Source: Candidatus Asgardarchaeum abyssi | GTDB taxonomy: Archaea > Asgardarchaeota > Asgardarchaeia > Asgardarchaeales > Asgardarchaeaceae | Direction of reading: 5' to 3' | Assembly (NCBI GenBank): GCA_040225955.1 | Contig: JBECUL010000003.1 | Span: 1-64,000, forward strand | Length of the DNA stretch: 64,000 bases | The notes under the pieces: model-generated | Database searches by the model: none | Seen by the model: only the letters and a program-made list of their open reading frames with translations | Told to the model about the DNA's origin: nothing | Shown here: piece after piece, positions 4,810 through 46,520 of the stretch | Layout: each line of letters begins with the position of its first letter | Position numbering within the stretch: position 1 is the stretch's first letter | Position numbers and translations under genes: made by a program

Positions 4810-4822
4810 ATCCCTTCATAAC

Positions 4823-5638: not shown

Positions 5639-5645
5639 ATCCTAA

Positions 5646-13873: not shown

Positions 13874-13882
13874 ATTATCACC

Positions 13883-15954: not shown

Positions 15955-16498
15955 TGAGCATCATCCTCACTAAAATTTTTCGTCCAAGTGAAATATTCTC
16001 AACCTTTCCTCTGCAATCTGGGCACAACTCTAATTGCTTTCGTATTTCGTCTTCACTAATTTTGTGTTCTTTTAGAAGTTGTTGCATCCTTTCAAGTCCG
16101 CGATTGAACTGGGCAACAGTCATGAATGGCCTTCCGCAATTTCTGCATTTTAAAAGATCAAACTTAATTTCTATTACTTCTTCTTGAGTTGTAGAAGATG
16201 CAAGTTCGTACTCCTGAGTTAGGTGTATTCCATCTTCAGGACAAATTTCTTCACATCTTGCACAGAAAGTGCATTTCCCATAGAATAATGAAATTATTCT
16301 AACATCATCCTTATCTTCTAAACTCAATGCTCCAGATGGACATAATTGCACACATGCACCGCATCCGATACACTTTGATGGATCAAACTCTGGTTTCCCT
16401 CTGAATTTCTCTGGTGGTGGTGTTTTCTCAAAAGGATATTTCACCGTTGCAGGAGCTTTAAGAGCCTTAAAAACTTCAGTAATTATTTTCTTCTTCAT
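15947..16498 (-). CDS. NuoI/HycF-like 4Fe-4S subunit
   Basis: ATVKYP..FRG, CIGCGACVQLCP, CTFCARCEEICP, plus CRNC...CPDC. Confidence 0.92.
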   Translation of the reverse strand: MKKKIITEVFKALKAPATVKYPFEKTPPPEKFRGKPEFDPSKCIGCGACVQLCPSGALSLEDKDDVRIISLFYGKCTFCARCEEICPEDGIHLTQEYELASSTTQEEVIEIKFDLLKCRNCGRPFMTVAQFNRGLERMQQLLKEHKISEDEIRKQLELCPDCRGKVENISLGRKILVRMMLNE

Positions 16499-19554: not shown

Positions 19555-20216
19555 TTGTACCTAAGCCCTCCTTTCTTCCAATCAAATCCAACTTTTTTAT
19601 CGTACCCAACTTTTTTGATCAATTCATGAATCTCTTTTACAGATTCCTCCTTTAATGAGGCCACTGGCAGTTCTGGTGGAAGATTCATGCGTTCTCTTCT
19701 TCTTATAGTTGAGCTCGTAAATGGTATTGGCTGTCCTGTCATAATTAGTTCACTTACTACCTTTCGATGGGGCTTTGGAACGATTCCTTCCATAGGCTTT
19801 CTAAGTGGATATTTCCCTTCAGGCCACTCATAAGGTAGAATGATTCTTCTAAAGTCTGGATGTCCATTAAATTTCAACCCGAAAAGATCATGAATCTCAC
19901 GTTCGATCCAGTTTGCACCAGGTAAAATCGATGCTAATGAATCGATTTCATTAACGTCTTTTGGGACACGCGTTCTTAAACTTATAATACTTTTATTAGC
20001 CTCAAAGTGATACAGTAATTCAAAATCTAGCCCATCGTCCACACAAGATATTGTTATTAACCGGATGTCCTTTTCCACTAGCAATTTTGCTGCCTTTATA
20101 ATCGCTGATCTTTCTATGTCAATAATATATTTTTGTTCTTTAATTTTCTGTAAGCCTGAGATATAATCGCCAAGCTCTTGTTTAAGAATCTCTATCACAT
20201 CATCAGCCAACAACAT
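19551..20216 (-). CDS. NuoC-like subunit with C-terminal extension
   Basis: WIEREIHDLFGLKFNGHPD...YPLRK motif followed by ~80 extra aa. Confidence 0.9.
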   Translation of the reverse strand: MLLADDVIEILKQELGDYISGLQKIKEQKYIIDIERSAIIKAAKLLVEKDIRLITISCVDDGLDFELLYHFEANKSIISLRTRVPKDVNEIDSLASILPGANWIEREIHDLFGLKFNGHPDFRRIILPYEWPEGKYPLRKPMEGIVPKPHRKVVSELIMTGQPIPFTSSTIRRRERMNLPPELPVASLKEESVKEIHELIKKVGYDKKVGFDWKKGGLRYK

Positions 20217-20223
20217 TCACCTC

Positions 20224-22173
20224 CTAAATCATCAGTAAGTATATTAATATCATAACAATCGCTGCGATGGCAATGTACACGTTTAGATATCCTATTTGTA
20301 TTCTTCTAAGCTTGTTACTGAACCAAATAAGCGCTCTACCTATACCAAACCATAATCTATCAAGGCCTCCTTTTTCCATGACCTTATATAAGCGACCAAA
20401 GAGAATCTTCGGAGAGAAGAAGAAAGCACTAGGATCAGGGCGTGTTTTTTCCATGGATAAGTAAGGTTCATCTACTTCTCCACCAGTAAAGATACCGAAT
20501 TTTCCTTCTGTCTCAGTGAAATGTCTAATGGTACCAAGTCTATAAGCAATAAATCCTAATAGCAAGGAGAATGTCAAGAGTATAACTATTAACGCTGCAT
20601 AGTATCCACCAACCGCACTAGCGACATATCCCAATGTAGATACAGTAAGAGTACCCCCAGCTAATGTTATTGCAGCTGGAATGATCAAGTAATTCAATGG
20701 GATATATGGTGCAATACCAAAAATGATACAAATGAGTGCTAAGACTACCATTGTTACTTGCATAGGTATGGGCACTTCTTTTACATTTTCCAACTTCGTA
20801 GGTCTTGATCCAAAGAATGCAGAAAATATAAACTTCATGACTCCTGCAAAGGTCATAGCACTGGCAAATATTGCAAAGATGCCATAGAATAAGTAAAGCC
20901 CTCCAATAGCTCCACCCATTGCTAAGCCAACACTTATTGCGGCCTCGTATATCATGAATTTACTAACAAAACCATTTAATGGAGGTATTCCTGATATAGC
21001 TAAGGCTCCTATAATACATGAAGCTGCCGTTACGGGCATATTTCTAGCCAATCCACCCATTTTTCGCAGATCTTTAGTCTTAGTTGCATATATTAGGCAA
21101 CCTGCTCCTAGGAATAATAGGCCTTTTATGAATACGTGATTAAAGAGATGGAAAAGCCCAGCAGCAATACCAAGAGTAGTTCCTATCCCGATAGCAAAAA
21201 ACATATAGCCAATTTGAGTGATCGTTGAGTATGCTAGGAGCCTTTTTACATCATTCTGAGCAATCATTGCAAATGAAGCAACAGCCATTGTTATGATACC
21301 AACAGTTGAAACAATAATGTTCCATTGTATCGTTATTGGGTATAGTAAATATACTCGCGCAATTAAATAAACACCAGCTTTTACCATTGCCGCTGCGTCC
21401 AATAGAGCTGTTAGTGGAGAGGGTGCCACTGTGGCATCTGGCAGCCAAGTGTGTATTGGAAACTGAACAGATTTAGCCATAGCTGCAACTAAATATAAGG
21501 CCAATATTATATTTAATGCAACTTGAGCGTCTTCTGGAAGTTGCGAAATTGCTGTAGGTATCTCTGAGTAAACTGTAGTTCCGGTGAGAAAGAAAGTCCA
21601 TATAGCACCAATAAGTAATCCAACACCTCCAGCATGTGTCAACATAATTGCCTTAAAGGAACCATGTAAGCTTTCAGGCTTTTTATAATAAAATCCAATT
21701 AGGCTGTAGGAGCATATTCCAACGATTTCCCAGAAAATGAACAGTAGTATTAGATCACCTGCAAATGCAAGTCCTATCATAGAACCGATAAATGTCAACA
21801 TTAGGAAATAAAACCTAGGAATTCCCTCTTCATGAGCCATATCTGCTGTTGAATAAAGTAAATCAAAGGCTCCAAAGAATGAAGCTGCGATGCCTATAAT
21901 TAAACTCAAAGCATCTACATAGAATGTGAAGCTGGTTCCTATCAATTTAGGAGCTACTAGAGGGATTATACTTGTTGACAATGTAGCTATAATTACTCTA
22001 TTGTTGAGTATAACCTCTGGTATTAAGAGAAAAACAATTCCTGCACTTATAAATACAAGTATAGTAGAATACCAACCAACTAACTTCTTTGAAAATTTCC
22101 CAATCAATGGCGTGAGAAATGCACCCAACATAGGTATTCCAACAGCCAAGTATACTAGTAATCCATAATCCAC
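20224..22173 (-). CDS. Antiporter-like membrane subunit (HyfB/NuoL/MrpA type)
   Basis: KSVQFPIHTWLPDA, MVKAGVY, KRLLAYST, C-terminal lateral helix and TM. Confidence 0.92.
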   Translation of the reverse strand: MDYGLLVYLAVGIPMLGAFLTPLIGKFSKKLVGWYSTILVFISAGIVFLLIPEVILNNRVIIATLSTSIIPLVAPKLIGTSFTFYVDALSLIIGIAASFFGAFDLLYSTADMAHEEGIPRFYFLMLTFIGSMIGLAFAGDLILLFIFWEIVGICSYSLIGFYYKKPESLHGSFKAIMLTHAGGVGLLIGAIWTFFLTGTTVYSEIPTAISQLPEDAQVALNIILALYLVAAMAKSVQFPIHTWLPDATVAPSPLTALLDAAAMVKAGVYLIARVYLLYPITIQWNIIVSTVGIITMAVASFAMIAQNDVKRLLAYSTITQIGYMFFAIGIGTTLGIAAGLFHLFNHVFIKGLLFLGAGCLIYATKTKDLRKMGGLARNMPVTAASCIIGALAISGIPPLNGFVSKFMIYEAAISVGLAMGGAIGGLYLFYGIFAIFASAMTFAGVMKFIFSAFFGSRPTKLENVKEVPIPMQVTMVVLALICIIFGIAPYIPLNYLIIPAAITLAGGTLTVSTLGYVASAVGGYYAALIVILLTFSLLLGFIAYRLGTIRHFTETEGKFGIFTGGEVDEPYLSMEKTRPDPSAFFFSPKILFGRLYKVMEKGGLDRLWFGIGRALIWFSNKLRRIQIGYLNVYIAIAAIVMILIYLLMI

Positions 22174-22175
22174 AT

Positions 22176-22658
22176 TTATCCCTCCGCCACAACCTTATAT
22201 GCGATTGCTAATTGTTTCTTTGCTTGTTCTCTCGGTACCAACTGTAATGCATAAGTCGGGCAAAACTTTACACATTCTGGGTCGCCATCGCAAAGATTAC
22301 ACTTTTCCGATATTCTAGCATTAACGTCAAACCATGGTACAGAAAGTGGACACATCATGTTGCAGAGGCGACATCCTATACACTTAGCAGGTTGAATTCT
22401 CACGATCCCAGTATTTTCATCCTTCACTATAGCATCTACTGGACATACTGCCATACAAATTGGGTCGTCACAGTGGTGACAATATATGGCTTCAAACCTT
22501 AGAGTTTTTAGATCAAAATATATACGAATATTCGACTTGGATAGATCTACAACTCCAAAGTGCTTATGAGAGCAAGCTATCATGCAGAAACGGCAACTTA
22601 CACATCTATCCGAATCATGAACAAGAACCATTTGCTCTGTTTCATTCGTCATTTGCAA
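22176..22658 (-). CDS. Polyferredoxin (HycB/CooF/DmsB-like), first gene of the hydrogenase operon
   Basis: CVSCRFCMIAC, CHHCDDPICMAVCP, CIGCRLCNMMCP, CNLC...CVKFCP. Confidence 0.92.
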   Translation of the reverse strand: MQMTNETEQMVLVHDSDRCVSCRFCMIACSHKHFGVVDLSKSNIRIYFDLKTLRFEAIYCHHCDDPICMAVCPVDAIVKDENTGIVRIQPAKCIGCRLCNMMCPLSVPWFDVNARISEKCNLCDGDPECVKFCPTYALQLVPREQAKKQLAIAYKVVAEG

Positions 22659-22959: not shown

Positions 22960-24324
22960 TCACTTAAACTGAAGTCCTAGCTCTTCTAGTTCTTTTTTTA
23001 CCTCCAAATAGAGCTTATAGTGTTCTTCCTTCGGTTCTAAGGTATCTAAGTTATAAAGCTCCTCAAACGGTTTTCCAACGGGAGCTACTTCAAAATCTAA
23101 CTTATCTTTGTACTTGTTATAAAGTTCTAAAACTATTTCATTGGCATCTTCTCTTTTGAGTTTAGCTGCAGCATGGGCTATTTCTCCAAACAGTCTTGCC
23201 ATCAGTGGACTGTTATGATTATCATATTTTAGATCGGCAGGTCTTGGTCCCGCAACATGACTTCCGCTTGGAACAACGGCTATTTCCAGAGCAGCAAATT
23301 CATAAGCATACTGTTTTGATCCAGGTCTCCCAGAAGTTGTATGACTCGTAAGGTTAATTAATTTAGTATTTCTAGCTATAGCTTGTTTCACTCGACTGGC
23401 CATCCAGAGCGAGTGAATATTCGTCTGCGATTTATACTTTATATGTTGAGGCCCCATATGGAGTATTTCTGCGCCTAACATGAGCTCAGCAATATGTGTA
23501 GCCACACCAACTATAGCTGTACCTTCAGGGCCTCCTCCATAACCTCCTACTAATGGGGTTGCTGCAATGTAAATTGGATTCCCTCGATATTTATAGAAAG
23601 CTATTCTTCCAAGTCCAATATCATCAATTTGTAATTCCGAGATAATCATTATTACAACTGGATCTGTTTTTCTTAAAAATCCCTCAAGAGCCATTGCAAT
23701 ATCATGCATAGCCATTTCTGCAAATGCAACTATTGGCATTCCAGGTCTTCCAGCTCTAGAAGTTGCTTCTCTTGCCCATTTTATGTATAGTAAAGCCTTG
23801 TATATTGCAAGCGCTGACTCGGGTCTTACATCTATTCCGTAGAGCGAACGAATATATCCCGGCAGTTCTAGTAGATCGATTATTTCCTCTCTTGCATAAG
23901 CCTCGTTCATGAGAACAAATACTTTTTCAGATACATCACAGTTAAATGGGCCTCCAAAAATTATTGGTGGCTTCGTATCTTCAACACCACGAGGATATAG
24001 AACTCTTCTATTTTTTCCTTCACCTACTTCTAGTTTGTCTTTTGCATTTTTCAATGCATGCTTAACTTCACTCTCGTCAAAGATTATTCTTCTTCTCGTG
24101 TTTATACAATATATTCCTGTCTCCAAAAATAATCTGTATCCAAGTTCCCAGAGTTCATCAGCAACGCTATTATCAGTATTGACAGGTTCTTCTGGATTAA
24201 ATTTGATGTCTGTTTCTTTTAATAATTCTCTTACTTTTGCAGCTAAAAGCCTGAGACTAAAATCTTCTGCACTCATCATAGGACCTGTTTCAGCTCTTTT
24301 AGCAATCTCAACAAAATTTACCAT
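22960..24324 (-). CDS. MtmB-family methyltransferase homologue 1, pyrrolysine-free
   Basis: RAETGP, GRPGMP, SELQID, PLVGGYGGGPEG, GKPFEELY...LEELGL; Val199 at the Pyl position. Confidence 0.9.
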   Translation of the reverse strand: MVNFVEIAKRAETGPMMSAEDFSLRLLAAKVRELLKETDIKFNPEEPVNTDNSVADELWELGYRLFLETGIYCINTRRRIIFDESEVKHALKNAKDKLEVGEGKNRRVLYPRGVEDTKPPIIFGGPFNCDVSEKVFVLMNEAYAREEIIDLLELPGYIRSLYGIDVRPESALAIYKALLYIKWAREATSRAGRPGMPIVAFAEMAMHDIAMALEGFLRKTDPVVIMIISELQIDDIGLGRIAFYKYRGNPIYIAATPLVGGYGGGPEGTAIVGVATHIAELMLGAEILHMGPQHIKYKSQTNIHSLWMASRVKQAIARNTKLINLTSHTTSGRPGSKQYAYEFAALEIAVVPSGSHVAGPRPADLKYDNHNSPLMARLFGEIAHAAAKLKREDANEIVLELYNKYKDKLDFEVAPVGKPFEELYNLDTLEPKEEHYKLYLEVKKELEELGLQFK

Positions 24325-24350
24325 CTTATCACCAACCTTACATTAATAAC

Positions 24351-26150
24351 TTATTCTTTATAACTCCAACCTCTAAGCTTGTAATATTCTCTAACAAACT
24401 CCTCAACATCTATAGTTTTCGGAATATCACACACATATCTTGGAACAACTTTAAATCTTAGAGGCAGTAATTCGTCCTCCTTAGAAATTCCAATCTTCTC
24501 ATTAAATTCTCGTTTCAAACTAACAATCTTCTCTCCTATCTTTAACATATCTTCTAAAGATATTTCTATTCCAGTTACGGCCTCATAAAATTCTGGCACT
24601 AACGATGGTGGTGTTTGACCTGCCCATGATTCAAAGGCAAATAAACAGAAAATCATAGACTCAACAACCTCTGTGAAGTCTTCAGTAATGACAACAGCCC
24701 TTGCAACATCATACGGTGTTGGATCTTCGATTTGCTCTATTCCAAGGTCGGGATTTCCATATATTAGAAATCCTGCGTCGGCACGGCTATGATCTGGGCC
24801 GTAGGGGCTAATTGCATATTTTAATCCCATCCCTATATACGTTCTTGGATCATGCATTGGAATAGCATCATTCTTAACAACAATAAAGCTATCTTTTGAT
24901 TCTGGACCTAAAGTTTCAATTATTTTTCTGGGTCCCTCTGCAATTATATTGCCGAAACCAATTCTTTTAGCAATCTTATCAATAACATCCAAAATTGCAT
25001 CTCCGCATCCCCACTTTAAAGATATATCCTCTTTTTCTAAAAGGCCTTTTTCTTGCAGCTCTGTTAAAGCTGCTATTATCGATCCAGTAATAATGGTGTC
25101 CATACCATATCGGTTACATAGCTCATTAGCCTTTATGAGAGGCTCTACCTCGTTAATGAGGTTTAAACTGCCCAATGCAGCTAAACTTTCGTACTCAGGG
25201 CCTTTTTGTTTCTCAGCTTTAAACTTTCCTTCTTTAATTTCTACTATGACCTTGCATGCAACTGGGCAATTAAAACACGCCTTATGCTGAACAAAATAAC
25301 CCTTATTCTTCATTGTAATAACACTAATATTTTGTGCATTTTTCACATCCCAATCATCTAAGAGCCAGTTCTTAAGAGGCAAATCCTTTTTTCTAAGTAG
25401 AAATGATAAATCTCCTCCAGTCCCACCTTCAGAGATGAATTTTATCCCTGGTTTCTCTTTTATAATTTTAAGTAATTGCTTATTGAGCTCTTTGACTTTA
25501 TCTGGGTCATAAACTCTAACTTTATTAGTTCCGCGAACTACAATTGCCTTTAACTTTTTGGCACCCATAACAGCACCAAGACCTCGTCTACCAGCAGCGC
25601 ATCCCATATCGTTTAGTATAGATGCGAATCTTACTAAATTTTCACCAGCTTGGCCGATAGTTAAAACTTTACTCTTCTCTCCATGAATCTTCTTTAGGTA
25701 AATCTCTGTTTCATAAGTATCTAGTCCCCATATTTCGCTCGCATCATTTAATTCAATTTTATCATCAAATATAGATATATAAACTGGTTTTTCACTAGCC
25801 CCCTCAACGATTATTGCGTCGTAACCAGCAAATTTTAACTCTGCCCCCCAAAATCCTCCAGCGTCAGATTGTCCCCAAAATCCCGTCAGCGGGGATTTTG
25901 CAGAAATAATATGTCTTCCAGTCATAAATACCGACGTTCCAGTAAGAGGCCCTACTGCGAATACTAACTTGTTATTTGGAGATAGTGGATCTACCTTTGG
26001 ATCAACTTCTGAGGTGATTATCTTTGTTGCAAAGCCAACTCCACCAAGAAACTCTTTGATTATACCATTTTTCAAATCTTCAACTTTAATATCACCCGAT
26101 GATAGATTTATCCTTAAGATTCTTCCGCAGTACCCATAATATTCAATCAT
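24351..26150 (-). CDS. aor: Tungsten aldehyde:ferredoxin oxidoreductase family protein
   Basis: KSPLTG, GRRGLGAVMG, CFNCPVAC, GPEYE, MHDPR; ATG at 26150 follows a GGTG RBS. Confidence 0.92.
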   Translation of the reverse strand: MIEYYGYCGRILRINLSSGDIKVEDLKNGIIKEFLGGVGFATKIITSEVDPKVDPLSPNNKLVFAVGPLTGTSVFMTGRHIISAKSPLTGFWGQSDAGGFWGAELKFAGYDAIIVEGASEKPVYISIFDDKIELNDASEIWGLDTYETEIYLKKIHGEKSKVLTIGQAGENLVRFASILNDMGCAAGRRGLGAVMGAKKLKAIVVRGTNKVRVYDPDKVKELNKQLLKIIKEKPGIKFISEGGTGGDLSFLLRKKDLPLKNWLLDDWDVKNAQNISVITMKNKGYFVQHKACFNCPVACKVIVEIKEGKFKAEKQKGPEYESLAALGSLNLINEVEPLIKANELCNRYGMDTIITGSIIAALTELQEKGLLEKEDISLKWGCGDAILDVIDKIAKRIGFGNIIAEGPRKIIETLGPESKDSFIVVKNDAIPMHDPRTYIGMGLKYAISPYGPDHSRADAGFLIYGNPDLGIEQIEDPTPYDVARAVVITEDFTEVVESMIFCLFAFESWAGQTPPSLVPEFYEAVTGIEISLEDMLKIGEKIVSLKREFNEKIGISKEDELLPLRFKVVPRYVCDIPKTIDVEEFVREYYKLRGWSYKE

Positions 26151-26192
26151 TATTAACACCACCGAGATTTATGCATAGATTTAAATGAATAT

Positions 26193-27200
26193 TCATTTCT
26201 TAAAAACAGGAATTACTTCATTGCCTATTAATTTCAAAGCCTTCTCTATATCTTTGCCCAGAGGATATCCAAAGACTATATGCGTAACCCCTAAATCTAC
26301 CATTCTCCTTATCTTCTTAATAATCTCCTCTGGTGTTCCAGTCAATGAAAAATCGTTTATTATATCGTCTGTTATAAGGTTAGTTGCTTGCTCGCTTTTT
26401 CCCTCGTCCATGAGTTTGTATATTTTAATAATTACATCTGTCTCATGTCCTGCTTCCTTTAAAATTTCCATGGGCTCTCTGTAAATAACTGCAGGCATGT
26501 GCGGCTTAACAAATTCTTTTGCCTCATCAGAATCTTCAGATATTGAGCTATACATCCAATTTGCAATAGAAAAGTTCGAAGGATCACGTCCCGCTTTTTT
26601 AAGTCCTCTCATCACATACTTTTTTGAGCAATCAATCATTTTCTCAGAACAGGATCCAAAGATCACACCATCGGCAATTTTCCCACTAAGTGTTAACATC
26701 TGAGGCCTTCTTGCACCAATAAATATAGGCACGTTAACTGGCTCATCTTTGAATTGCAGATTGCAAACTCTAAAATTATAACTCTCCATACTTAGTTTTT
26801 CTCCACGTAAAAGTTTTCTAATCGCAATTACTGCATCTCTAACAGTAGCTATTGGCTTATTCCACATCTCATAACACAACGGAGGAAGAGCGGATCCACC
26901 ACCAGCTCCTATACCAAGTATAACGCGACCGTTAGAAATAGAATATAATGTTCTAATAGTTCTTGCTATCATAGCGGGATGTCTTGTATAGGGGTTGCAG
27001 ATTGATGGCCCAACAATAACTTTTTTTGTTGCAAGAGCTATTGCTGCAAGTGTAATGAAGGTATCATTACAATCATAACTAGGATTCAAATCAGGAAGCC
27101 ATACATAGTCAAAACCTAATTTTTCAGCCTCAACAGACCACTTAACTATATCCTCTATAGGGAAATGTGTATATGGACTGAATACAAATTTCACGCTCAT
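26193..27200 (-). CDS. LLM-class (Mer-like, probably F420-dependent) oxidoreductase, paralogue 2
   Basis: Same motifs as, and clearly paralogous to, 11836-12864. Confidence 0.85.
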   Translation of the reverse strand: MSVKFVFSPYTHFPIEDIVKWSVEAEKLGFDYVWLPDLNPSYDCNDTFITLAAIALATKKVIVGPSICNPYTRHPAMIARTIRTLYSISNGRVILGIGAGGGSALPPLCYEMWNKPIATVRDAVIAIRKLLRGEKLSMESYNFRVCNLQFKDEPVNVPIFIGARRPQMLTLSGKIADGVIFGSCSEKMIDCSKKYVMRGLKKAGRDPSNFSIANWMYSSISEDSDEAKEFVKPHMPAVIYREPMEILKEAGHETDVIIKIYKLMDEGKSEQATNLITDDIINDFSLTGTPEEIIKKIRRMVDLGVTHIVFGYPLGKDIEKALKLIGNEVIPVFKK

Positions 27201-27387
27201 GTTAAATTCCTCGAATATATTTTTATATATTTTATATACATTATAACTTATTTATTTTCCAATTTAAAATTGGACTTATCTCAACGTTCTTATCTTCTTA
27301 TGAACGTTATCTTTTTGATCTTTCAAAAATTGATGTAATAAAAGCCACAAAGTTTACTGTAATATAAAAGAAAAAAGAAAATGATAG

Positions 27388-28752
27388 CTAAAGCTCTAGT
27401 CCTAATTCCTCTAATTCTCTTTTCACTTCTTCATATTCTTTCAAATGTTCTGGCTTTGGTTGTAAGGTGTCTAAATCGTAAAGTTCTTCAAATGGTTTCC
27501 CAACTGGAGACACTTGAAAATCTAACTTATCTTTATACTTCTTATAAAGCTCTAAAACAATTTCATTAGCGGTTTCAAGTTTTATTTTTGCTGCTGCGTG
27601 AGCTATTTCACCAAATAACCTTGCCATTAATGGGCTATTGTGGTTATCATATTTTAAGTCAGCAGGTCGTGGTCCGGAAACATGACTTCCAGCAGTGACT
27701 ACAGCTATTTCTAGGGCAGCAAACTCGTAAGCGAATTGCTTTGATCCTGGTCGCCCAGCAGTAGTATGACTAGTAGTATGAATCATTTTTGAATTTTTAC
27801 TAACTGCTTGTTTTGCTCTACTTGCGACCCATAATGAGTGAATGTTCGTTTGCGACTTATATTTTATATGTTGCGGCCCCAAATGTATAATATCCCCATT
27901 AAGCATTACAGCTGCTATATGTTCTGCAACAGATACTATTGCTACGGTAACTGGATCTCCAGCGAATCCACCCACTAATGGTGTAAACGCTATGTATATG
28001 GGTGGTCCAGTAGCGATATAGTATCCCAACCTAACTAGGGAAACATCGTCTATTTTTAACTCAGGTAACATAACTATCGCTCTTGGATCAGTCTTTCTTA
28101 ATCCCCACTCCTCATTGCTTGCCCCAATTTCATGCATTCCCATTAGGGCATGGGCAACTACTGGCATCCCCGGTCTTCCAGCTCTCGAAAGAGCTTCACG
28201 TGTCCACTTAGCATAAAGTATTACTGTCTGTGGGGATAATCCTGAATTGGGCCTTATTTCTAGGCCATACATTTTCTTTAAATAGCCAGGAAGAAAGAGG
28301 ACGTCAATTATTTCTTCTCTTGCATATGCTTCGTTCATAGGAACAAACACTTCTTCTGTGACATCGCAGTTAAATGGTCCTCCAAAAATTATTGGTGGTG
28401 TACTATCTTCTATACCACGAGGGTAGAGAACTCTTCTATCTTTTCCTTCACCAATTTCAAGTCTATCTCTTACATTTTTTAGTGCATGCTTGACTTCACT
28501 TTCTTCAAAAAGGATTAATCTACGAGTGTTAACACAATAGATACCTGTCTCTAAAAAGAATTTGAAACCTGCTTCCCATAAATCATCAGCAAGTGTTAAA
28601 TCCGTATTGACTGGCTCATTTGGATCAAACGTAACATCCAATTCTTTTTTTATTTCTCTTAGTTTCATTGCTATTTTTTTCATATCAAAATCTTCTTCTG
28701 CTATCATGGGGCCTGTTTCAGCGCGTCGAGCCACTTCAATAAAATTGACCAA
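27388..28752 (-). CDS. MtmB-family methyltransferase homologue 2, pyrrolysine-free
   Basis: 454 aa; paralogue of 22960-24324; GRPGMPVVAH with Val199 at the Pyl position. Confidence 0.9.
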   Translation of the reverse strand: MVNFIEVARRAETGPMIAEEDFDMKKIAMKLREIKKELDVTFDPNEPVNTDLTLADDLWEAGFKFFLETGIYCVNTRRLILFEESEVKHALKNVRDRLEIGEGKDRRVLYPRGIEDSTPPIIFGGPFNCDVTEEVFVPMNEAYAREEIIDVLFLPGYLKKMYGLEIRPNSGLSPQTVILYAKWTREALSRAGRPGMPVVAHALMGMHEIGASNEEWGLRKTDPRAIVMLPELKIDDVSLVRLGYYIATGPPIYIAFTPLVGGFAGDPVTVAIVSVAEHIAAVMLNGDIIHLGPQHIKYKSQTNIHSLWVASRAKQAVSKNSKMIHTTSHTTAGRPGSKQFAYEFAALEIAVVTAGSHVSGPRPADLKYDNHNSPLMARLFGEIAHAAAKIKLETANEIVLELYKKYKDKLDFQVSPVGKPFEELYDLDTLQPKPEHLKEYEEVKRELEELGLEL

Positions 28753-28755
28753 GTT

Positions 28756-29427
28756 TCAGCCCCCCTTCTTTTTCTTTTGTTCCATCAATCTTTCACAAAG
28801 TTTCACGGCCTCGATAGCATCTCTAGCATACCCATCTGCGCCTATTTCATCTGCCCACTTCTGAGAACATGGAGCACCTCCAACTATAACAAGATATTTA
28901 TCTCTTTTTCCTTGACTTTTGAGATACTCTATGAGGTCTCTCTGTTTCATCATTGTTGTGGTAAGCAGTGCTGATGTTGCAATTATATCCGCGTTTACTT
29001 CTTCAGCGGCTTGTAAAAATCTTGGTATTGGAACATCTTTTCCAAGGTCATAAACATCGAATCCAGCTGATTGAAGCATAGCAATGACTATAGTTTTACC
29101 GATATCATGAATGTCGCCCTCAACAGTTCCTATTACAACTACGCCTTTCTTTTCTACTTTTTGTCCACGTCTTACTATCTCTTCTTTAAGAACATCGACA
29201 GCTGCTTTCATAGCATCAGCGCCCATTATTAACTCTGGCAGAAAAATTTCCATTCTGTCAAATTTTTCGCCCAATTCTCTAATTGCAACCGCAAATCCTT
29301 TTTCAATAGCCTCAAGAGGGTCTATTCCAGCCTCAATAGCCTCCTTTGCTAGTTTTACTGCTAAATCCTTATCATAGTTATAAATTGCCTCTTGCATCTT
29401 CTTAAATAACTCTTCTTTATCCACCAT
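28756..29427 (-). CDS. Methyltransferase corrinoid protein (MtmC/MttC-like)
   Basis: Four-helix cap plus B12-binding DIHDIGK, SALLTTTM, GGAP. Confidence 0.95.
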   Translation of the reverse strand: MVDKEELFKKMQEAIYNYDKDLAVKLAKEAIEAGIDPLEAIEKGFAVAIRELGEKFDRMEIFLPELIMGADAMKAAVDVLKEEIVRRGQKVEKKGVVVIGTVEGDIHDIGKTIVIAMLQSAGFDVYDLGKDVPIPRFLQAAEEVNADIIATSALLTTTMMKQRDLIEYLKSQGKRDKYLVIVGGAPCSQKWADEIGADGYARDAIEAVKLCERLMEQKKKKGG

Positions 29428-29439
29428 AACTTTTTCCTC

Positions 29440-30450
29440 CTACCTACCAAAAAGTTTGAGAGTAACACCCAGTTTCTTTTCCTTTGCATTCTTATAAATA
29501 ATATAACCAACTGCTACATCTTCACTACCCATTCCAATTGGAGCAAAAAATATACGCTCTTTTGGATTTTCTCTCCCTGGCTTTTTACCTATGACAATAT
29601 CTCCAAGATTCGCGTATATATCCTCATCTTTTATTAGCCCCTCTTTATACATTTTTGCTAATACCGGTGTACCTCTATGAAGCACGTGTTCCCATTCGTC
29701 AACTACTATTTTATCAGAGTGAAGAACCACCTCATACTCCTCTTCCTGATATGAACCAACATGAGAAAAGAAGCTTCCTTCTTTTACCCACTTATCCTTC
29801 ACTATTGGTTCATCAGCGACCGTTACTGTAATTATAATATCGGCTCCTACAACTGCATCTTTAGGTGTATCCACTGGTATTATTTTTAATCCAGTTTTTT
29901 CGCTCATCTCTTCGCTGTACTTAATGGAAGCCTCTTTTCGAATATCGTAAACTCTGACCTCTTTAAGATTTTTGAGAACCTCTAATAAAGCTAATAGTTG
30001 GGTTCTCGCTTGAACACCTGCTCCAATCATAGCAACTATTTCTGAATCGGGTCTTGCTAAATATTTTGCTCCAACCCCCGTTACTGCTCCGGTTCTCATA
30101 GCACTGATTAAAGTACAGTCCATAATCGCTAATGGAAAACCAGTTTCGGAATCGTTAAGTATCAAAAGACCGGTTGCTCTGGGCATCCCATATTTTATTG
30201 GGTTCTTTGGAAAACCTGCAATCCATTTTATTCCACAAACATTGAATTTGCCACCAACGTATGCTGGCATTGCATTTATCCTGCCTCTCCTTTTCTCGTC
30301 TAGATCTAAGACTACTTTAGATGGCACTATTACTTTATTCTCCGCGTGGAGTCTAAAGACTTCTTCAACTGTTTCTACAACAAGTTTCATAGTTAACCCT
30401 GATTCTTCAACTTCTTTTTGGGTCAAATAAATAAATTCGATATCTTTCAT
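29440..30450 (-). CDS. Ornithine cyclodeaminase/mu-crystallin family enzyme (SbnB-like)
   Basis: RINAMPAY, GIKWI..P.NP, ISAMRTGA, GAGVQA, IGMGSED. Confidence 0.88.
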   Translation of the reverse strand: MKDIEFIYLTQKEVEESGLTMKLVVETVEEVFRLHAENKVIVPSKVVLDLDEKRRGRINAMPAYVGGKFNVCGIKWIAGFPKNPIKYGMPRATGLLILNDSETGFPLAIMDCTLISAMRTGAVTGVGAKYLARPDSEIVAMIGAGVQARTQLLALLEVLKNLKEVRVYDIRKEASIKYSEEMSEKTGLKIIPVDTPKDAVVGADIIITVTVADEPIVKDKWVKEGSFFSHVGSYQEEEYEVVLHSDKIVVDEWEHVLHRGTPVLAKMYKEGLIKDEDIYANLGDIVIGKKPGRENPKERIFFAPIGMGSEDVAVGYIIYKNAKEKKLGVTLKLFGR

Positions 30451-31898
30451 GAATATCCCCTTCTTTTGACCTCTTTAATATAATTTTCTAACTCTTTTTC
30501 AACATCTTTTTCTAATGGCACTTCTGGTTCGTGCTCACTTATTATCTTTTTTACAACCTCATGGGCACGTTCTACAATATCTTTAGAGCCCATTTGCTCC
30601 CATCTTTCCCGTCTCAATCTATCTCCAAGCTTAGGTATGAAATGATCCTTTCTAACATGTTCAAGGGTGTGTCTTTGTGCCAGAAAATGACCTCCTGGTC
30701 CAACGTTTCTTATTATATCAAGCGCTAAAGTTTCTTCGTTAACTTCAATTCCTTTCATAGCATGATATATCATACCAATGATTTCGTTGTCTATTACTAA
30801 GCTTTCCAAGCTTATTGTAAGTGCCAATTCCATTGTTCCTGGGTAGAAAATCATATTAATTCCGCCCATGGCAGCCATAAGGCATGTTAAAGCTTTTTCA
30901 TAGCCTGCTTGCATATCTAATATCTTTGAATCCGTCGCACAAGCAGTTCCTCTACTTGGTAAACCGTAAAATCTTGCAAGTTGTGCTGATGCTACATTTA
31001 CGATCCCTATTTCAATAGCTCCTATTGAGATGTAACCAGTTCTCATGTCCATTACTGTTCCCACAGTTCCATAAAATACAGGAGTTCCTGGACTAACTAA
31101 TTGAGCTATAGTTATTGCTGCTAGTACTTCCGCATTTTGGATAACCAGCAATCCGGCTAATGTTGCTGGGGCAGTAGCTCCAGCCTGGGGCTCTGAAGCT
31201 ATATCAACAGGTTGTCTCATTTTTGCAAATTCTATGAGTCCTTCTAATTGATCTGCATGCAATTGTAGTGGAGATATTGTGTTACTTGTTGTAAAAATCA
31301 TAGGCTTCTTTCTAAGTTCCTCCTCCCCACCAGCAATTATAGAAGCCATTTTCAACATATCCTTAGCTCTTAATCGACCTCGGCATGTACCTTTAATTAC
31401 CTTATCAGAATTCTTTACACTTTGGAGATATCCATAAACATGAGCAAGGTAGTCTGGAACTCCCTCTATATGAGGCATAATTGCTCCACTGTGAAGCATA
31501 TGATAATTTTCCATTGCATCAGCAACCTTAATTAGATTTCCAACATCCTCTAAATTTGTTCTTCTAACGGTTTTTTTCTCATAATCATAAATGTTTAATC
31601 GACCGATCATGGGTTCATATACGACCTTTTTATCTTCTATCGTAACATTATGCTTCTTATTCCTCGCGTAGACAGTAAACCTACTAGGAGCTCTTTTTAC
31701 TTGTTCTTTAATTAGGTATTCTGGGAATTTTACAATTTTTGACTTATCATCAACATCCGCACCAGCTTTTTTCAGAATTTCTCTAGCTTCATCTAATTGC
31801 ACAAAGATTCCTATTGTTGATAAAACTTCAAGTGTTGCATAGTGAATTTGATAAATATCGTCCTTGGAGAGAATTTTGAGCTGCCCACCTCTAATCAT
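30447..31898 (-). CDS. MttB-superfamily methyltransferase, pyrrolysine-free
   Basis: SPLQ, GATAPATLAG, QNAEVLA, TDSK..DMQAGYEK, VGPGGHFL; Ala321 at the Pyl position. Confidence 0.92.
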   Translation of the reverse strand: MIRGGQLKILSKDDIYQIHYATLEVLSTIGIFVQLDEAREILKKAGADVDDKSKIVKFPEYLIKEQVKRAPSRFTVYARNKKHNVTIEDKKVVYEPMIGRLNIYDYEKKTVRRTNLEDVGNLIKVADAMENYHMLHSGAIMPHIEGVPDYLAHVYGYLQSVKNSDKVIKGTCRGRLRAKDMLKMASIIAGGEEELRKKPMIFTTSNTISPLQLHADQLEGLIEFAKMRQPVDIASEPQAGATAPATLAGLLVIQNAEVLAAITIAQLVSPGTPVFYGTVGTVMDMRTGYISIGAIEIGIVNVASAQLARFYGLPSRGTACATDSKILDMQAGYEKALTCLMAAMGGINMIFYPGTMELALTISLESLVIDNEIIGMIYHAMKGIEVNEETLALDIIRNVGPGGHFLAQRHTLEHVRKDHFIPKLGDRLRRERWEQMGSKDIVERAHEVVKKIISEHEPEVPLEKDVEKELENYIKEVKRRGYS

Positions 31899-32289
31899 AA
31901 TATTACCACCTTGTTCTTCATATAATTAATTCTCGGTATTGGTTATTAAAATTCTTAAGGAAATTAATTGTTTTTTCTGCTTTTATGACATAGTTGCTTT
32001 AAAAGTGTTTAATAATATTTAGAAAAAATGCTAAAGAATAAAAAAGTATTTAAAAAATAAAAATTTTTCACACATAAGTATTATAAATTCAATACAAAAG
32101 CAATCGCCCGTTGATATGATATCTTAGCAAATATAAAAAATTATAAAAGAAAAAGGATTGCTAAAACTAAGAGCTTCAAAAAATAAATCAAATATAAACA
32201 ATAATTGCCGAGTGTTGTCTATTATACCAAAAGTATTAAAAAAATGAAATAAAAGTATTAAAGCATAAAGTAAAAACAATAATAAGGCT

Positions 32290-33900
32290 GTGGAAATTGA
32301 ATTAATAATGTATGTGCAGGTGTGTTTTTTGCATTCTAAAAAATCAAAGATCTCTCATGCAGCTACATATAATATTTTTGAAATGAAAATGAAAAAGCCA
32401 ATAATAGCATCTAAGAAAGTTACTATAAAAATAGAGAAAAGTATTAAACCCAGTTCCCTCTTCGAAATACTAAGAAGATCGATCGCTCTTTCGACTTCAG
32501 AGCTTAGCTACAAGGCACTTAAAAAGATACATTCGCTTTTTGGAAAGAAGTCGTTTGATGTAATAGCGATAACTAGTTATAACGGAATACTTCTTGATCT
32601 CCTATCAGAAAATGGGCTTCCTGGAAAAAATATATATGTCTCTATTATATGGCTTGATTACTTTTCAATCCATGGTGCACTTATAAATATCCGTACAGGC
32701 GAATTGGTCTCAATTGTCGAGAGAGAGAATTTAATTTCCTCAGAAGCTCCAGATGTTTTTTCTCTTACAGCTCAGATCATAAAGGATAGAAGCAAAGCGG
32801 AAGTCTTCAATTCAACCCTAAAATCTTCAGTTAATAAATTAGTTAAAGAACTATGTAAGGTATCAAACATAAGTAAGGATGCGATTTATGGAATTTTTGT
32901 CATTGGGAATACTATTATGCATCATTTATTCTTGGGTCTCGATGTAACAAAACTCGGCGAACCACCATTCTTACCAATCATCCGAGATAGTCTAACAATT
33001 AAAGCTAAAGATCTAAATATAAACATCAACAAAAGTGGCCTAATTTTTATGCCTCCCCTTCTAATAGGACATATAGGGTCAGATACACTCTCATGCCTAG
33101 CTTTATTAATTAACAAATATAAGAACAAAACAGTACTCCTTTTAGATCTCCGAAGCACAGGTAGTGCAATACTGTATAAGAATGATCAGATCTTCATAAT
33201 GACTTTTCCAATAGGCGAAACCTTGGGCAGCTTTACATGGGAACAAGATGTAAGTGAAAGAGCCGAGGAGTATGGATTTGAGGAAGATATTGAACAAAAA
33301 CCGATTTCCATGAAAATACTGCAACTGATTCCAATCATAAATTACCTACTTAAAGAAAAAATGGTCCTTGCAAATGGGCGAATTAATAGACTGGCTATTT
33401 ATGAAAGTAGCAAAAGTTCCTCTATCCAGCTTATTGAAACAAAGAATAATATCTACCTAAAAATAAAAAAAGATGGGGATGTCCAATATATTTCCCAGCG
33501 CGATATCAGAAACTTTCAAGTCATAAAATCTCTAATCTACATATATACAATGAATTTATTGAAGAGAACAAACACAGCACCCGATGAAATAGACATCCTT
33601 TGTGTACTTGGGTATAATGTTCCAAAAAATGCCGATACTATTTTCTCGGGAGAAGTTCTTAAAAACTTGGGAATTCTTCCAATACGTAACCCAGAAAATA
33701 TAAAGATAATAGTTTCCTCTAAAATGCCTCTATTTGGAGGTGCTTTATGCGTTCTTGACGCTGATCTCTTAAAATTTGTTAATAAAGTAATCAAGAAAAT
33801 AAATTACATTAGTATAGAAGAAGATCAAGAATTCTTTTCTGAATTTATTAATGCTCTTTATTTCCCAAATAGAAAAAGTATTATGAATGATAATCTATAA
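32290..33900 (+). CDS. Degenerate ASKHA-domain corrinoid reductive activator (RamA/RACo-like)
   Basis: GNTIMHHLFLGLD...PPF, GHIGSD, ISQRDIRNFQVIK, F..ALYFP; nucleotide-binding and Fe-S motifs altered; start uncertain. Confidence 0.78.
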   Translation: MEIELIMYVQVCFLHSKKSKISHAATYNIFEMKMKKPIIASKKVTIKIEKSIKPSSLFEILRRSIALSTSELSYKALKKIHSLFGKKSFDVIAITSYNGILLDLLSENGLPGKNIYVSIIWLDYFSIHGALINIRTGELVSIVERENLISSEAPDVFSLTAQIIKDRSKAEVFNSTLKSSVNKLVKELCKVSNISKDAIYGIFVIGNTIMHHLFLGLDVTKLGEPPFLPIIRDSLTIKAKDLNININKSGLIFMPPLLIGHIGSDTLSCLALLINKYKNKTVLLLDLRSTGSAILYKNDQIFIMTFPIGETLGSFTWEQDVSERAEEYGFEEDIEQKPISMKILQLIPIINYLLKEKMVLANGRINRLAIYESSKSSSIQLIETKNNIYLKIKKDGDVQYISQRDIRNFQVIKSLIYIYTMNLLKRTNTAPDEIDILCVLGYNVPKNADTIFSGEVLKNLGILPIRNPENIKIIVSSKMPLFGGALCVLDADLLKFVNKVIKKINYISIEEDQEFFSEFINALYFPNRKSIMNDNL

Positions 33901-33990
33901 TAAATAATTAATAATATCTACATCAGCAAGCAGATTAAACTTAAATATCAAGAATAATAAGATGAAAAATAATGCCTACTGGTGTTTAAA

Positions 33991-35850
33991 ATGTATAAGA
34001 GCTATTATGGTAAAATTTTAAGGATAAATTTAACTGACCAAAAGATTTCCACTGAGAGCTTATCGAATGAACTTATAGAGAACTACGTTGGCGGGATGGG
34101 GTTCGGTATTAAAATCCTATTTGATGAAGTCGACCCTAGAATAGACCCACTAGGTGTCGAAAATAAAGTAATATTCTCCGTGGGTCCTATAACGGCTACA
34201 AAGGCTCCTATGTTTGCACAAACATGTGTTGTAACAAAATCACCTCTTACGAATACTATTTTGAATAGCTATGCTGGTGGTACCCTAGGTTATTATTTCC
34301 GAAAATCTGGATATGATGCTGTAATAATCGAAGGTAAGTCCGAAAAACCAGTTTTTATTAGCATATTCGATGATGAGGTTGATATTCGAGCAGCAGAGGA
34401 TATCTGGGGTAAAGGTTCTCAAGAAAGCCAAAAGATCATAAAAAAGAAGTTAGAAGGTTTAAAGGTTCAAACAGCTGTTATTGGGCAAGCTGGTGAAAAT
34501 CTCGTGAGACTTGCTAGTATAGTTACTGAATCAAGAACATTTGGAAGAGGTGGTGCTGGTGCAGTTCTTGGAAGTAAATTATTAAAAGGAATTGCAATTG
34601 GTGGGACTCAAAGTATTGAACTTTACGATGAGGAAAGCTTCAATAAATATTGTAATGAAGCATTTGAGTTAATCAAAAAAGAAATCTCAAATCCGCAAAC
34701 TCTTTTAGCTGGTTTTTCTAATATAGGAACTATGGCGGGAATCGACTTGCTCAACCAGATGGGGGCTATGGCAAGTAGAAACCACCAAACAGGTGTTTGG
34801 CATGGTATAAATGAGGTAAATTCAACGACGTTTAAAGAAAAATATCATGTTTCACATACGGCATGTTTTGGATGTCCTGTGCATTGTGGAAAAAAGAATC
34901 GGGTTAAGACAGGAAAATACGCTGGTTTGATTCAGGAGGGACCAGAGTACGAATCGATATACGCCTTAGGAACAGAATGTGATATTAGAGATCCAGAAGC
35001 ACTAATAGTAGCTGACTTTTTATGTGATGATTTTGGATTGGACACACTAACCACCGGAGTATTAATAGCCTATACTATGGAAGCCTATGAGAGAGGATTT
35101 ATTACGAAAGATCAACTAGATGGTCTTGATTTGCGCTTTGGCAATCATGAAGCCGAGTTAGAAATGATTAGAAAAATAGCATTTCGCGATGGTATTGGAA
35201 ATATTTTAGCGGATGGAATATTAAACGCAATTAAGCATTTCGGTGAGGAAACAAGGTCTTTTGCTATGCATGTTAAGGGACTAACTTTTGCAGCTTGGAT
35301 GCCTAGAGTCCTAAAAGGTATGGCTCTAGCATTCGCAACGGCTAACAGGGGTGCTTGTCATAAGAGAGCTATAATCGGTATGGAAGTTATGGGGATTGTA
35401 GAACCACAAGCAACAAAAGGAAAAGGAAAACTAATTAAAGAGATTCAGGATAAGGTTAATGCTATATTTACATTAATAGGTTGTCGTTTCAGCGAATTCG
35501 TGTATCCTGTGGATCTCTATGTTAATCTTCTGAACTCTGCAACTGGTCTGAATTATACTAATGAGAAATTTATGAAACTTGGTGAACGAATATGGAACCT
35601 TGAAAGAGTATTTAACGTTATTAATGGATTCACAAGAAAGGATGATACTCTCCCAGAGCGGTGCTTTGAGCCATTGCCAGAAGGACCAAGTAAGGGATAT
35701 AAACTTACAAGAGAAGAATTTAACGAAATGCTGGACGAATATTATGCCGAGCGAGGATGGAGCAAGGAAGGGATTCCTACAAGGGAGAGACTTAAAGAAT
35801 TAGGAATAACTTATGCATATGATAAAATGAAGAAATTCGCATCTGGATAA
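33991..35850 (+). CDS. aor: Tungsten aldehyde:ferredoxin oxidoreductase family protein
   Basis: KSPLT, GRGGAGAVLGSK, CFGCPVHC, GPEYE, RGACH; ATG at 33991 follows GGTG. Confidence 0.92.
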   Translation: MYKSYYGKILRINLTDQKISTESLSNELIENYVGGMGFGIKILFDEVDPRIDPLGVENKVIFSVGPITATKAPMFAQTCVVTKSPLTNTILNSYAGGTLGYYFRKSGYDAVIIEGKSEKPVFISIFDDEVDIRAAEDIWGKGSQESQKIIKKKLEGLKVQTAVIGQAGENLVRLASIVTESRTFGRGGAGAVLGSKLLKGIAIGGTQSIELYDEESFNKYCNEAFELIKKEISNPQTLLAGFSNIGTMAGIDLLNQMGAMASRNHQTGVWHGINEVNSTTFKEKYHVSHTACFGCPVHCGKKNRVKTGKYAGLIQEGPEYESIYALGTECDIRDPEALIVADFLCDDFGLDTLTTGVLIAYTMEAYERGFITKDQLDGLDLRFGNHEAELEMIRKIAFRDGIGNILADGILNAIKHFGEETRSFAMHVKGLTFAAWMPRVLKGMALAFATANRGACHKRAIIGMEVMGIVEPQATKGKGKLIKEIQDKVNAIFTLIGCRFSEFVYPVDLYVNLLNSATGLNYTNEKFMKLGERIWNLERVFNVINGFTRKDDTLPERCFEPLPEGPSKGYKLTREEFNEMLDEYYAERGWSKEGIPTRERLKELGITYAYDKMKKFASG

Positions 35851-46506: not shown

Positions 46507-46520
46507 CCTCGCTGCAATTG

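Follow-up and report, generated by a model that had tools for sequence, protein, structure and literature searches.

The genome of Candidatus Asgardarchaeum abyssi (assembly GCA_040225955.1; 2.64 Mb in 189 contigs, 93.5% complete, 7.8% contamination) carries, on contig JBECUL010000003.1, an island of genes for corrinoid-dependent methyltransferases that lack pyrrolysine (Pyl). The window analysed here comprises the first 64,000 nucleotides (nt) of this contig. The island encodes one MttB-family and two MtmB-family methyltransferases (MtmB1 and MtmB2), an enzyme of the ornithine cyclodeaminase (OCD)/mu-crystallin family, a corrinoid protein with its activase, a luciferase-like oxidoreductase (LLM) and two aldehyde:ferredoxin oxidoreductases (AOR1 and AOR2). 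Gene order and strands, checked with a list of open reading frames (ORFs) and with Pfam and NCBIfam models, are those stated in the initial annotation of this DNA, and all three methyltransferase genes are uninterrupted, with no in-frame stops, as had also been reported (Table 1). MttB and the OCD-type gene share 4 nt, the stop of the former overlapping the start of the latter. The run from MtmB1 to AOR2 is not the whole unit, which also includes a polyferredoxin gene and is adjoined by a hydrogenase operon. AT-rich gaps with T-tracts and TATA-like boxes separate MtmB2 from LLM (187 nt) and MtmB1 from the ferredoxin gene (301 nt), and these gap sequences make it likely that the island genes are arranged in three transcription units. 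The true start of the activase is probably the ATG near 32383.

Table 1. Genes of the methyltransferase island and associated features (positions in the window unless another contig is named)
Feature	Position	Strand	Evidence or remark
MttB-family methyltransferase (non-Pyl, 483 aa)	30447-31898	-	Pfam MTTB (PF06253) 408 bits
OCD/mu-crystallin-family NAD(P) enzyme, SbnB/AlaDH/Pyr2C-reductase subgroup	29440-30450	-	Pfam OCD_Mu_crystall (PF02423) 264.7 bits
Corrinoid protein (cap + B12-binding domain)	28756-29427	-	TIGR02370 245.3
MtmB2, non-Pyl paralogue, 454 aa	27388-28752	-	Pfam MtmB 296.7 bits
LLM, Mer-like luciferase-like F420-type oxidoreductase	26193-27200	-	NF002619 256
AOR1, aldehyde:ferredoxin oxidoreductase, extra copy	24351-26162	-	AFOR_N + AFOR_C
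MtmB1, non-Pyl paralogue, 454 aa	22960-24324	-	Pfam MtmB 286.8 bits
4Fe-4S polyferredoxin	22176-22658	-	Fer4 families
RACo/RamA-type corrinoid activase	32290-33900	+ (divergent)	Raco_middle 96 bits, RACo_C_ter 40 bits
AOR2	33982-35850	+	AFOR_N + AFOR_C; matches bacterial cassette AORs
Group-4 membrane-bound [NiFe] hydrogenase operon	13397-22173	-	Pfam + Ni-binding motifs
HyuB-like	47286-48968	-	possibly associated with island
HyuA-like	48965-51055	-	possibly associated with island
PreA/DHODH-like Fe-S flavoprotein	52247-53425	+	possibly associated with island
Other Mer-like paralogues	11836-12864; C18:7837-8895; C50:14006-15013

The residues proposed earlier as equivalents of pyrrolysine are borne out by structure alignments. 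In HMMER alignments, Ala321 of the island MttB stands opposite the Pyl residue (X) of Methanosarcina barkeri MttB (7XCL), and Val199 of MtmB2 opposite Pyl202 (X) of M. barkeri MtmB (1L2Q); a residue check gave the same Val199 in MtmB1. The 93.5%-complete genome yielded no PylS above cut-off and no PylD.

The core of the island is a conserved gene cassette. Scanning prokaryotic species with MtmB2, each represented by a single genome, gave 13 loci (53-57% identity), 12 of them in Chloroflexota (mostly Anaerolineae) and one in Spirochaetaceae. The order MttB-OCD-corrinoid-MtmB is the same in 13 of 13, locus L007 being cut off ahead of MttB, and these bacterial proteins are 54-58% (MttB), 59-64% (OCD) and 52-63% (corrinoid) identical to those of the island; those loci that are kin do not count as independent. 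The same order was found in the metagenome loci L071, L072, L073 and L076. In every locus that shows both neighbours, the OCD gene sits between the MttB and corrinoid genes, and the 4-nt overlap with MttB recurs in L001. Non-Pyl MtmB does occur together with MttB and the OCD-type enzyme, the point on which the initial annotation had made its reading depend, and the arrangement is strictly conserved in the loci fetched. A protein search returned 253 proteins at E <= 1e-60, and its best 120 clusters (90% identity) are all at least 52% identical to the query; they come from uncultured sediment anaerobes and are labelled Anaerolineae, Chloroflexota, Spirochaetes, Caldiserica, Nitrososphaerota or 'Candidatus Asgardarchaeia'. 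In a representative library the whole clade forms one 50% cluster, with the next relatives at 38-44% identity. Our literature search found no paper describing the module, and nothing on MttB with a cyclodeaminase or on corrinoid demethylation of N-methylproline.

The Asgard version is an enlarged one. The proteins of locus L071 are 95-99% identical to those of the island and their genes stand in the same order, so that the assembly is confirmed. L073 belongs to a second low-GC lineage (70-83% identical) and is taken as Asgard because of a nearby Arf/Roc-type GTPase; its genes run AOR2-like, LLM, MtmB1-like, MttB, OCD, corrinoid and MtmB2-like, with a RACo-like gene on the opposite strand. In L077, a contig of unassigned lineage, an MtmB1-like gene is followed by LLM. 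The second MtmB, the Mer-like LLM and an AOR are thus shared by two or three related contigs of low GC, and the second MtmB, the Mer paralogue, the extra AOR and the hydrogenase link were seen on Asgard-type contigs only. An exception for the second MtmB is L075:364-3784, a bacterial-type contig (GC 0.54) in which a corrinoid gene precedes two tandem MtmB genes, so that MtmB duplication also occurs outside the Asgard lineage.

The MTTB domain spans residues 6-478 of the island MttB, the sole MttB in the assembly. The protein scores 508.7 on TIGR02369, the model for Pyl-dependent trimethylamine methyltransferases, which is below the cut-off of 525, and its nearest relative is the glycine betaine enzyme MtgB (351 bits, alignment to 9YCE). 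Arg316 corresponds to MtgB R312 and is present in all 16 cassette MttBs compared, that of the island included; the Pyl-dependent MttB has a Tyr at the place of this acid-binding residue. In MtgB, R312 binds the carboxylate and is conserved across the characterised members with acidic substrates, while the aromatic pair of the pocket is specific to MtgB and missing from MtcB, MtpB, MthB and MtyB (PMC13080624). The MtgB pocket residues Y97/H348/F356 are replaced in the island by Ile98/Tyr352/Ala359. The resulting pocket, I98/R316/A321/Y352/A359, is common to the 16 cassette MttBs, with V321 in two and G359 in one as the exceptions. Because the arginine is kept and the glycine betaine residues are replaced, the substrate of MttB is probably an acidic compound that bears N-methyl groups but is not glycine betaine. 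Glycine betaine was rejected as the leading candidate, given that three of the four binding residues of MtgB are replaced here and likewise in the cassette relatives.

Both MtmBs are full-length members of PF05369 (profile positions 3-450) and are 70% identical to each other. In the MtmB tree, the sequences from the cassettes group as a single clade (support 100), within which seven Asgard-type MtmBs make a subclade (support 100) that in turn contains an MtmB1-type subclade (support 100). As read from this nesting, the MtmB duplication is older than the Asgard-type lineages in the tree. Across the 121 sequences of the cassette clade, the former Pyl position is occupied by C, V, A, T or I, Met204 is invariant, and residue 201 is His in 116, with Phe in the MtmB1 type. 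The likeness of MtmB2 to M. barkeri MtmB (1L2Q, 1NTH) is one of full-length homology within the same fold family, at 206 bits over residues 9-452. MtmB2 differs from it in having Val for Pyl202, two residues deleted just past this position, and His201 and Met204, which are peculiar to the cassette clade. The MtmB superfamily had 906 matches in the representative library, most of them full-length, which implies that most of its members lack pyrrolysine.

A substrate for a non-Pyl MtmB has now been described. MtqB of Methanococcoides methylutens Q3c, reported in 2026, demethylates tetramethylammonium and choline, and its authors propose that such substrates imitate Pyl adducts (PMC13044021). The earlier statement that no characterised substrate was known for non-Pyl MtmB is therefore outdated, and the default expectation for the island MtmBs, by analogy with MtqB, would be methyl transfer from a cationic N-methyl group. 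MtqB shares with them the condition of an MtmB-family protein that works with a corrinoid protein and without pyrrolysine. According to its published description, on which this comparison relies, MtqB has MtqC as its sole partner and delivers methyls to MtbA for methanogenesis, whereas the cassette MtmB invariably occurs with MttB and an OCD-type enzyme, and the Asgard archaeon is no methanogen. Contig C9 (1623-11768, locus L081) carries a third non-Pyl MtmB, which shares 36% identity with those of the island and represents a type common in other Asgard genomes; no corrinoid protein is encoded near it. It heads a minus-strand row, followed by genes for a 208-aa protein without Pfam match, for CbiQ and two ATPases of an energy-coupling factor (ECF) transporter, for proteins resembling adenine deaminase and KARI, and for a further AOR.

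The corrinoid protein scores above the cut-off of TIGR02370 (215.3) and, at 242.8, below that of the MtgC model (310); its DxHxxG motif reads DIHDIG at residue 105. The initial proposal of a single shared corrinoid gains support from the assembly, in which this protein is the only match to the cap domain B12-binding_2 and the MttB is the only MttB. As the sole protein of this kind found, it must be shared by all methyltransferases of the genome. The activase has the ASKHA ATPase and middle domains of the RamA/RACo group and no Fe-S domain of its own (5 Cys in total, no cluster motif), and would thus need an external ferredoxin. The OCD-type enzyme, a full-length PF02423 protein encoded by a single-copy gene, falls under all equivalog cut-offs, namely those for SbnB (283.7 against 326.9), AlaDH (258.4 against 409) and OCD (131.5 against 350). 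It is equally near to SbnB, Pyr2C reductase and archaeal AlaDH, at about 220 bits each (4M54, 6T3E, 1OMO). These three relatives are NAD(P)-dependent and act on the C-alpha-N bond of alpha-amino or N-substituted amino acids.

An aldehyde-oxidising step, also part of the initial proposal, is well represented among the cassettes. A small 4Fe-4S protein and an AOR follow the core in 10 of the 13 bacterial loci, and the island polyferredoxin is 32-39% identical to the product of the gene upstream of AOR in these 10. AOR2 is 42-45% identical to the bacterial cassette AORs, 70% to the AOR of L073 and 37% to AOR1; its nearest structure is the Pyrococcus furiosus AOR (1AOR, 454 bits), and its full-length AFOR_N and AFOR_C domains identify it as a predicted tungsten-type aldehyde:ferredoxin oxidoreductase. 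The genome has about 12 AOR paralogues. In L076, an NAD-dependent aldehyde dehydrogenase (ALDH) of BADH/ALDH1 type follows MtmB in place of ferredoxin and AOR, and a RACo-like gene lies downstream; an iron-type alcohol dehydrogenase (ADH) in L008 and Zn-ADHs in L001 and L013 stand directly upstream of MttB. An aldehyde-handling enzyme is thus found at the cassette in nearly every locus, and the exchange of AOR for an unrelated aldehyde dehydrogenase in L076 argues that an aldehyde or carbonyl intermediate belongs to the pathway and that the AOR is not merely a source of low-potential electrons. Upstream of the L076 cassette are genes for an indolepyruvate-type 2-oxoacid:ferredoxin oxidoreductase, an ADP-forming acyl-CoA synthetase and a xanthine/uracil-family permease. 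A conserved link to the first two enzymes was considered and rejected, as it occurs in L076 only and the homologues of the present genome lie on other contigs.

The neighbouring hydrogenase, which had been assigned as the site of ferredoxin reoxidation, is a real group-4 [NiFe] enzyme by its motifs and subunits. Its large subunit has the two Ni-binding motifs, CGIC (residue 72) and DPCFSC (residue 361), and the operon also encodes a NuoB-type small subunit (Oxidored_q6), antiporter-like subunits (Proton_antipo_M), NuoC-like and NuoH/I/K-like proteins and a CCG-domain protein. The polyferredoxin gene, of the type associated with AOR, lies 2 nt upstream of the first hydrogenase gene, and this adjacency supports the idea that reduced ferredoxin would end as H2. 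The CCG-domain (HdrD-like) protein, encoded at 18664-19554 between the NuoC-like and large-subunit genes, is unusual for a complex of Mbh/Ech type.

A different role than the one first proposed emerges for LLM. Its nearest structures are those of Mer (8QPL, 1Z69; 206 bits, full-length), against 76 bits for the F420-dependent alcohol dehydrogenase Adf. Since it is far nearer to Mer than to Adf, one-carbon (C1) oxidation on tetrahydromethanopterin (H4MPT) appears a more likely role than oxidation of the substrate backbone, which the initial annotation had suggested. An Adf-type alcohol dehydrogenase converting choline to betaine aldehyde was likewise discarded on these scores. LLM differs from Mer in being one of four similar paralogues in the genome and in lying in a methyltransferase and AOR operon; its scores are below the Mer equivalog cut-offs (256 against 276 for NF002619, and 247 against 349), and the four paralogues, at 231-258 bits, are all under the Mer cut-off. 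The copy on contig C18 lies near the only URO-D (MtaA-like) gene of the genome and several amidohydrolase genes. That the organism makes F420 is indicated by CofE (F420-0:gamma-glutamyl ligase, over cut-off) at 45688-46506; beside it is a gene of the 5-formyltetrahydrofolate cyclo-ligase family, and the two together span 45688-47192.

As to the fate of the methyl groups, the genome has Mch, one MtrH (contig C89) and one URO-D-type protein; no Pterin_bind-type second methyltransferase (MT2, which unloads the corrinoid) and no CdhC of CO dehydrogenase/acetyl-CoA synthase were found in it. The island is consequently not the complete pathway for which it had been taken, the sole MT2 candidates, MtrH and URO-D, being encoded on other contigs. 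In the C89 locus (1-7148, L083), this only MtrH homologue, cut by the contig end, precedes genes for an AOR that shares 40% identity with AOR2, for the two aconitase-X subunits, for a 4Fe-4S protein and for an ECF transporter, which makes it another pairing of a methyltransferase with an AOR.

Taken together, the island represents an Asgard form of the conserved four-gene cassette, and we favour, on balance, the reading that this module strips N-methyl groups successively from one acidic compound. According to this scheme, MttB and the MtmBs would take the methyls in succession from a single N-methylated compound of amino-acid type, a betaine other than glycine betaine, and both methyltransferase types would load the shared corrinoid protein, held in the Co(I) state by the RACo-type activase. 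Once some or all of the methyls are gone, the OCD-type enzyme would act on the amine at its C-alpha-N bond, and the carbonyl product would be oxidised by AOR through its polyferredoxin, with the reduced ferredoxin passing its electrons to H2 at the adjoining group-4 hydrogenase. The methyls may leave the corrinoid through MtrH to give methyl-H4MPT, which the island Mer paralogue would take up for further oxidation (Mch being present). The MtmB duplication brings the number of methyltransferases to three, which would fit three methyl groups; the order of MttB first and the MtmBs second and third, also given in the initial annotation, is conjectural. A more specific proposal, which we regard as possible but hold with clearly less confidence, is that the module performs exhaustive Pyl-independent N-demethylation, in which MttB would take the quaternary methyl and the MtmBs the tertiary and secondary ones, possibly on an iminium made by the OCD-type enzyme.

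Several observations weigh against this interpretation. We found no characterised precedent for the Pyl-free, corrinoid-dependent demethylation of a tertiary or secondary amine, and the bacterial versions of the module mostly have two methyltransferases only. Neither the island nor the bacterial cassettes contain an MT2 gene, and no Mer paralogue reaches the cut-off, so that LLM could have another substrate. No betaine transporter of BCCT or OpuA type lies beside any locus examined, and the bacterial loci contain catabolic genes of heterocycle type (SsnA-like, PreA-like, HyuAB and OTC-like). Furthermore, the base of the cassette clade is a polytomy, which gives no direction for a transfer between domains.

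The conserved place of the OCD gene invites a mechanism in which its product takes part in demethylation itself. After MttB has acted on the quaternary amine, the OCD-type enzyme with NAD would oxidise the tertiary N-methyl amino acid so formed to a permanently cationic iminium, a free-molecule mimic of the pyrrolysine-methylamine adduct, which MtmB would then demethylate; the imine would be either reduced back, in a redox-neutral cycle, or hydrolysed to a 2-oxo acid or aldehyde for AOR, ALDH or ADH. The embedding of the gene between those for MttB and the corrinoid protein, with the 4-nt overlap here and in L001, speaks for such an arrangement, as do the different aldehyde-handling enzymes at the cassettes and the His201 and Met204 that the cassette MtmBs have as their own beside the former Pyl position. 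The OCD family is known for NAD-dependent C-alpha-N chemistry, including redox-neutral cycles such as that of ornithine cyclodeaminase; we know of no enzyme that demethylates an iminium of this kind. The mimicry of Pyl adducts by substrates has been proposed for MtqB (PMC13044021), but the extension to the present enzymes is conjecture, a plain downstream dehydrogenase would explain the synteny equally well, and we consider this mechanism improbable. It is also unlikely, in our judgement, that MttB and MtmB are two separate entry enzymes, each starting on its own quaternary amine by removing the first methyl (from an acidic betaine, say, in the one case and from choline or tetramethylammonium in the other) and sharing the corrinoid protein, with OCD, the AORs and LLM serving general amino-acid and C1 metabolism. 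The sole characterised non-Pyl MtmB does act on quaternary amines, the genome is rich in AOR and Mer paralogues, and the third MtmB occurs in an unrelated context on C9. Nevertheless, the strict four-gene order with OCD spans bacteria and archaea, the cassette-type MttB and MtmB are always together in the loci fetched, and the pocket and clade signatures are conserved.

The absence of an MT2 gene from the cassette could alternatively mean that MtmB is itself the MT2, transferring methyls from the MttB-loaded corrinoid to an acceptor such as H4MPT, tetrahydrofolate or an amine. In the annotated bacterial loci, genes for pterin-binding proteins, MtrH and URO-D are absent from a distance of 10 kb, and the Mer-like LLM adjoins MtmB genes here and in L073 and L077. 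Against this stands the fact that all characterised MtmB-family members are substrate:corrinoid methyltransferases (MT1); MtrH and URO-D are available elsewhere in the genome, and two MtmB paralogues would be hard to explain, which leaves this a very unlikely role. Ordinary trimethylamine or monomethylamine methylotrophy, finally, is what the names in the source database and the high Pfam scores suggest, but the Ala and Val in place of pyrrolysine, the lack of PylS and PylD, and the acid-binding Arg at the position of Tyr are so contrary to it that we give it almost no credence.

The successive demethylation of one acidic compound still leaves a choice of substrate, on which the wider gene context bears. 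Most bacterial loci have, after the cassette, genes for a MoaD/ThiS-like protein, a carbamoyltransferase resembling OTC (260 bits, where the OTC cut-off is 306), an Fe-S flavoprotein of PreA/DHODH type, an amidohydrolase of SsnA/ATZ-TRZ type, HyuA and HyuB. A phosphotransferase system of the Man family and GntR regulators lie near the bacterial cassettes, as does an EamA or xanthine/uracil permease. The window holds the sole HyuA and HyuB homologues of the genome and its best PreA-like homologue (47286-53425), and these genes are possibly linked to the island. The HyuB/HyuA-like (caprolactamase/oxoprolinase family) and PreA-like genes flank one for an Arf-family GTPase. At L011:15029-21293, in a member of Chloroflexia, the genes for the PreA-like protein, the amidohydrolase, HyuA and HyuB are all broken up into several short ORFs, which look like frameshift errors of a long-read assembly rather than decay. 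Another group of genes (2336-7928) encodes an MFS transporter, a Zn-ADH, a DeoC/LacD-type aldolase, a zinc-ribbon protein and an FGGY kinase; its ADH and aldolase are the best homologues in the genome of the genes directly preceding MttB in L001 and L013.

This context indicates that the substrate may be no classical betaine, and a nitrogen-heterocycle or ureide part would fit equally. Among the named candidates, proline-type betaines have a modest chance, histidine betaines (hercynine, ergothioneine) a somewhat smaller one, and glycine betaine or sarcosine routes a slight one; the true substrate probably lies outside these classes. The full gene set is explained by none of proline-type betaines, hercynine/ergothioneine, a sarcosine/creatinine hub or methylated heterocycles, each of which fits a part and was set aside as a complete explanation. 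The aerobic catabolism of proline betaine and hydroxyproline betaine proceeds through Rieske and flavin demethylases, oxidation of (hydroxy)proline to the semialdehyde and an aldehyde dehydrogenase. Its sequence of two N-demethylations, ring C-N oxidation and aldehyde oxidation resembles the route proposed here, while the island employs oxygen-independent families for it (corrinoid methyltransferases, an NAD-dependent OCD-type enzyme and a tungsten-type AOR). A proline-type betaine is thus only one candidate reading.

The module belongs to no characterised subfamily and, judged by homology, would function in the manner of the MtgBC, MtpB and MtqBC corrinoid systems. With MtgB/MtgC of Desulfitobacterium hafniense (2QNE, 9YCE) it shares a TIM-barrel MttB-family MT1 without pyrrolysine, the carboxylate-binding Arg, an MtgC-like corrinoid partner with the DxHxxG motif and an ATP-dependent activase close by. 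It differs from that system in that the island operon also encodes another MT1, from an unrelated family, as well as an OCD-type enzyme, and has no MT2 gene. The other non-Pyl MttB enzymes in the same comparison are MtpB, MtcB, MtyB and MthB; the known systems take one methyl only, and the product is excreted or handed to other enzyme types. New in the module are the two unrelated MT1 families on one corrinoid protein, the embedded OCD-type enzyme and the coupled aldehyde oxidation, to which the archaeon adds the duplicated MtmB, the Mer paralogue and the hydrogenase link.

The stepwise demethylation of glycine betaine is known physiologically, and the enzyme of its dimethylglycine step is still unidentified (PMC9768040). 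If the proposed function is true, it would explain how anaerobes pass beyond the first methyl of a betaine without pyrrolysine. The module, present in more than 120 sequence clusters, would be a clonable candidate for this missing second-methyl chemistry and would give a function to a large clade of 'MtmB' proteins. Its genes are now named mono- and trimethylamine methyltransferases and tallied as mtmB and mttB in metagenome surveys. It is also the only corrinoid methyltransferase system found in this Asgard genome, and its apparent crossing between domains and its wiring to H2 bear on the syntrophic, hydrogen-releasing lifestyle that has been proposed for Asgard archaea.

This domain crossing is suggested by the different affinities of the island and its flanks. 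The island core is 52-63% identical to the bacterial cassettes, and its best non-self Asgard matches reach 38% for MtmB (301 genomes sampled) and 42% for MttB (31 sampled). The flanking hydrogenase large subunit, in contrast, has counterparts of up to 60% identity in other Asgard genomes, with a match in 99 of 121. Because the island is bacterial-like in identity and its flanks are Asgard-like, the comparison points to a movement of the core between domains, with its nearest relatives in Anaerolineae, followed by amelioration: GC is uniform along the window at 0.30-0.39 and amounts to 0.35-0.39 in the island, against 0.43-0.69 in the bacterial loci. The much wider spread in bacteria suggests the direction from bacteria to archaea. 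Contamination of this metagenome-assembled genome by Chloroflexota was considered and rejected, since the GC of the island matches the window, the hydrogenase is Asgard-like, an Arf-family GTPase is encoded on the contig (51230-51877) and L071 has the same arrangement. Further along the window, between the island and the CofE gene, a gene for an FG-GAP/beta-propeller protein (37139-38752) stands beside a 2075-aa ORF without NCBIfam match (38973-45200).

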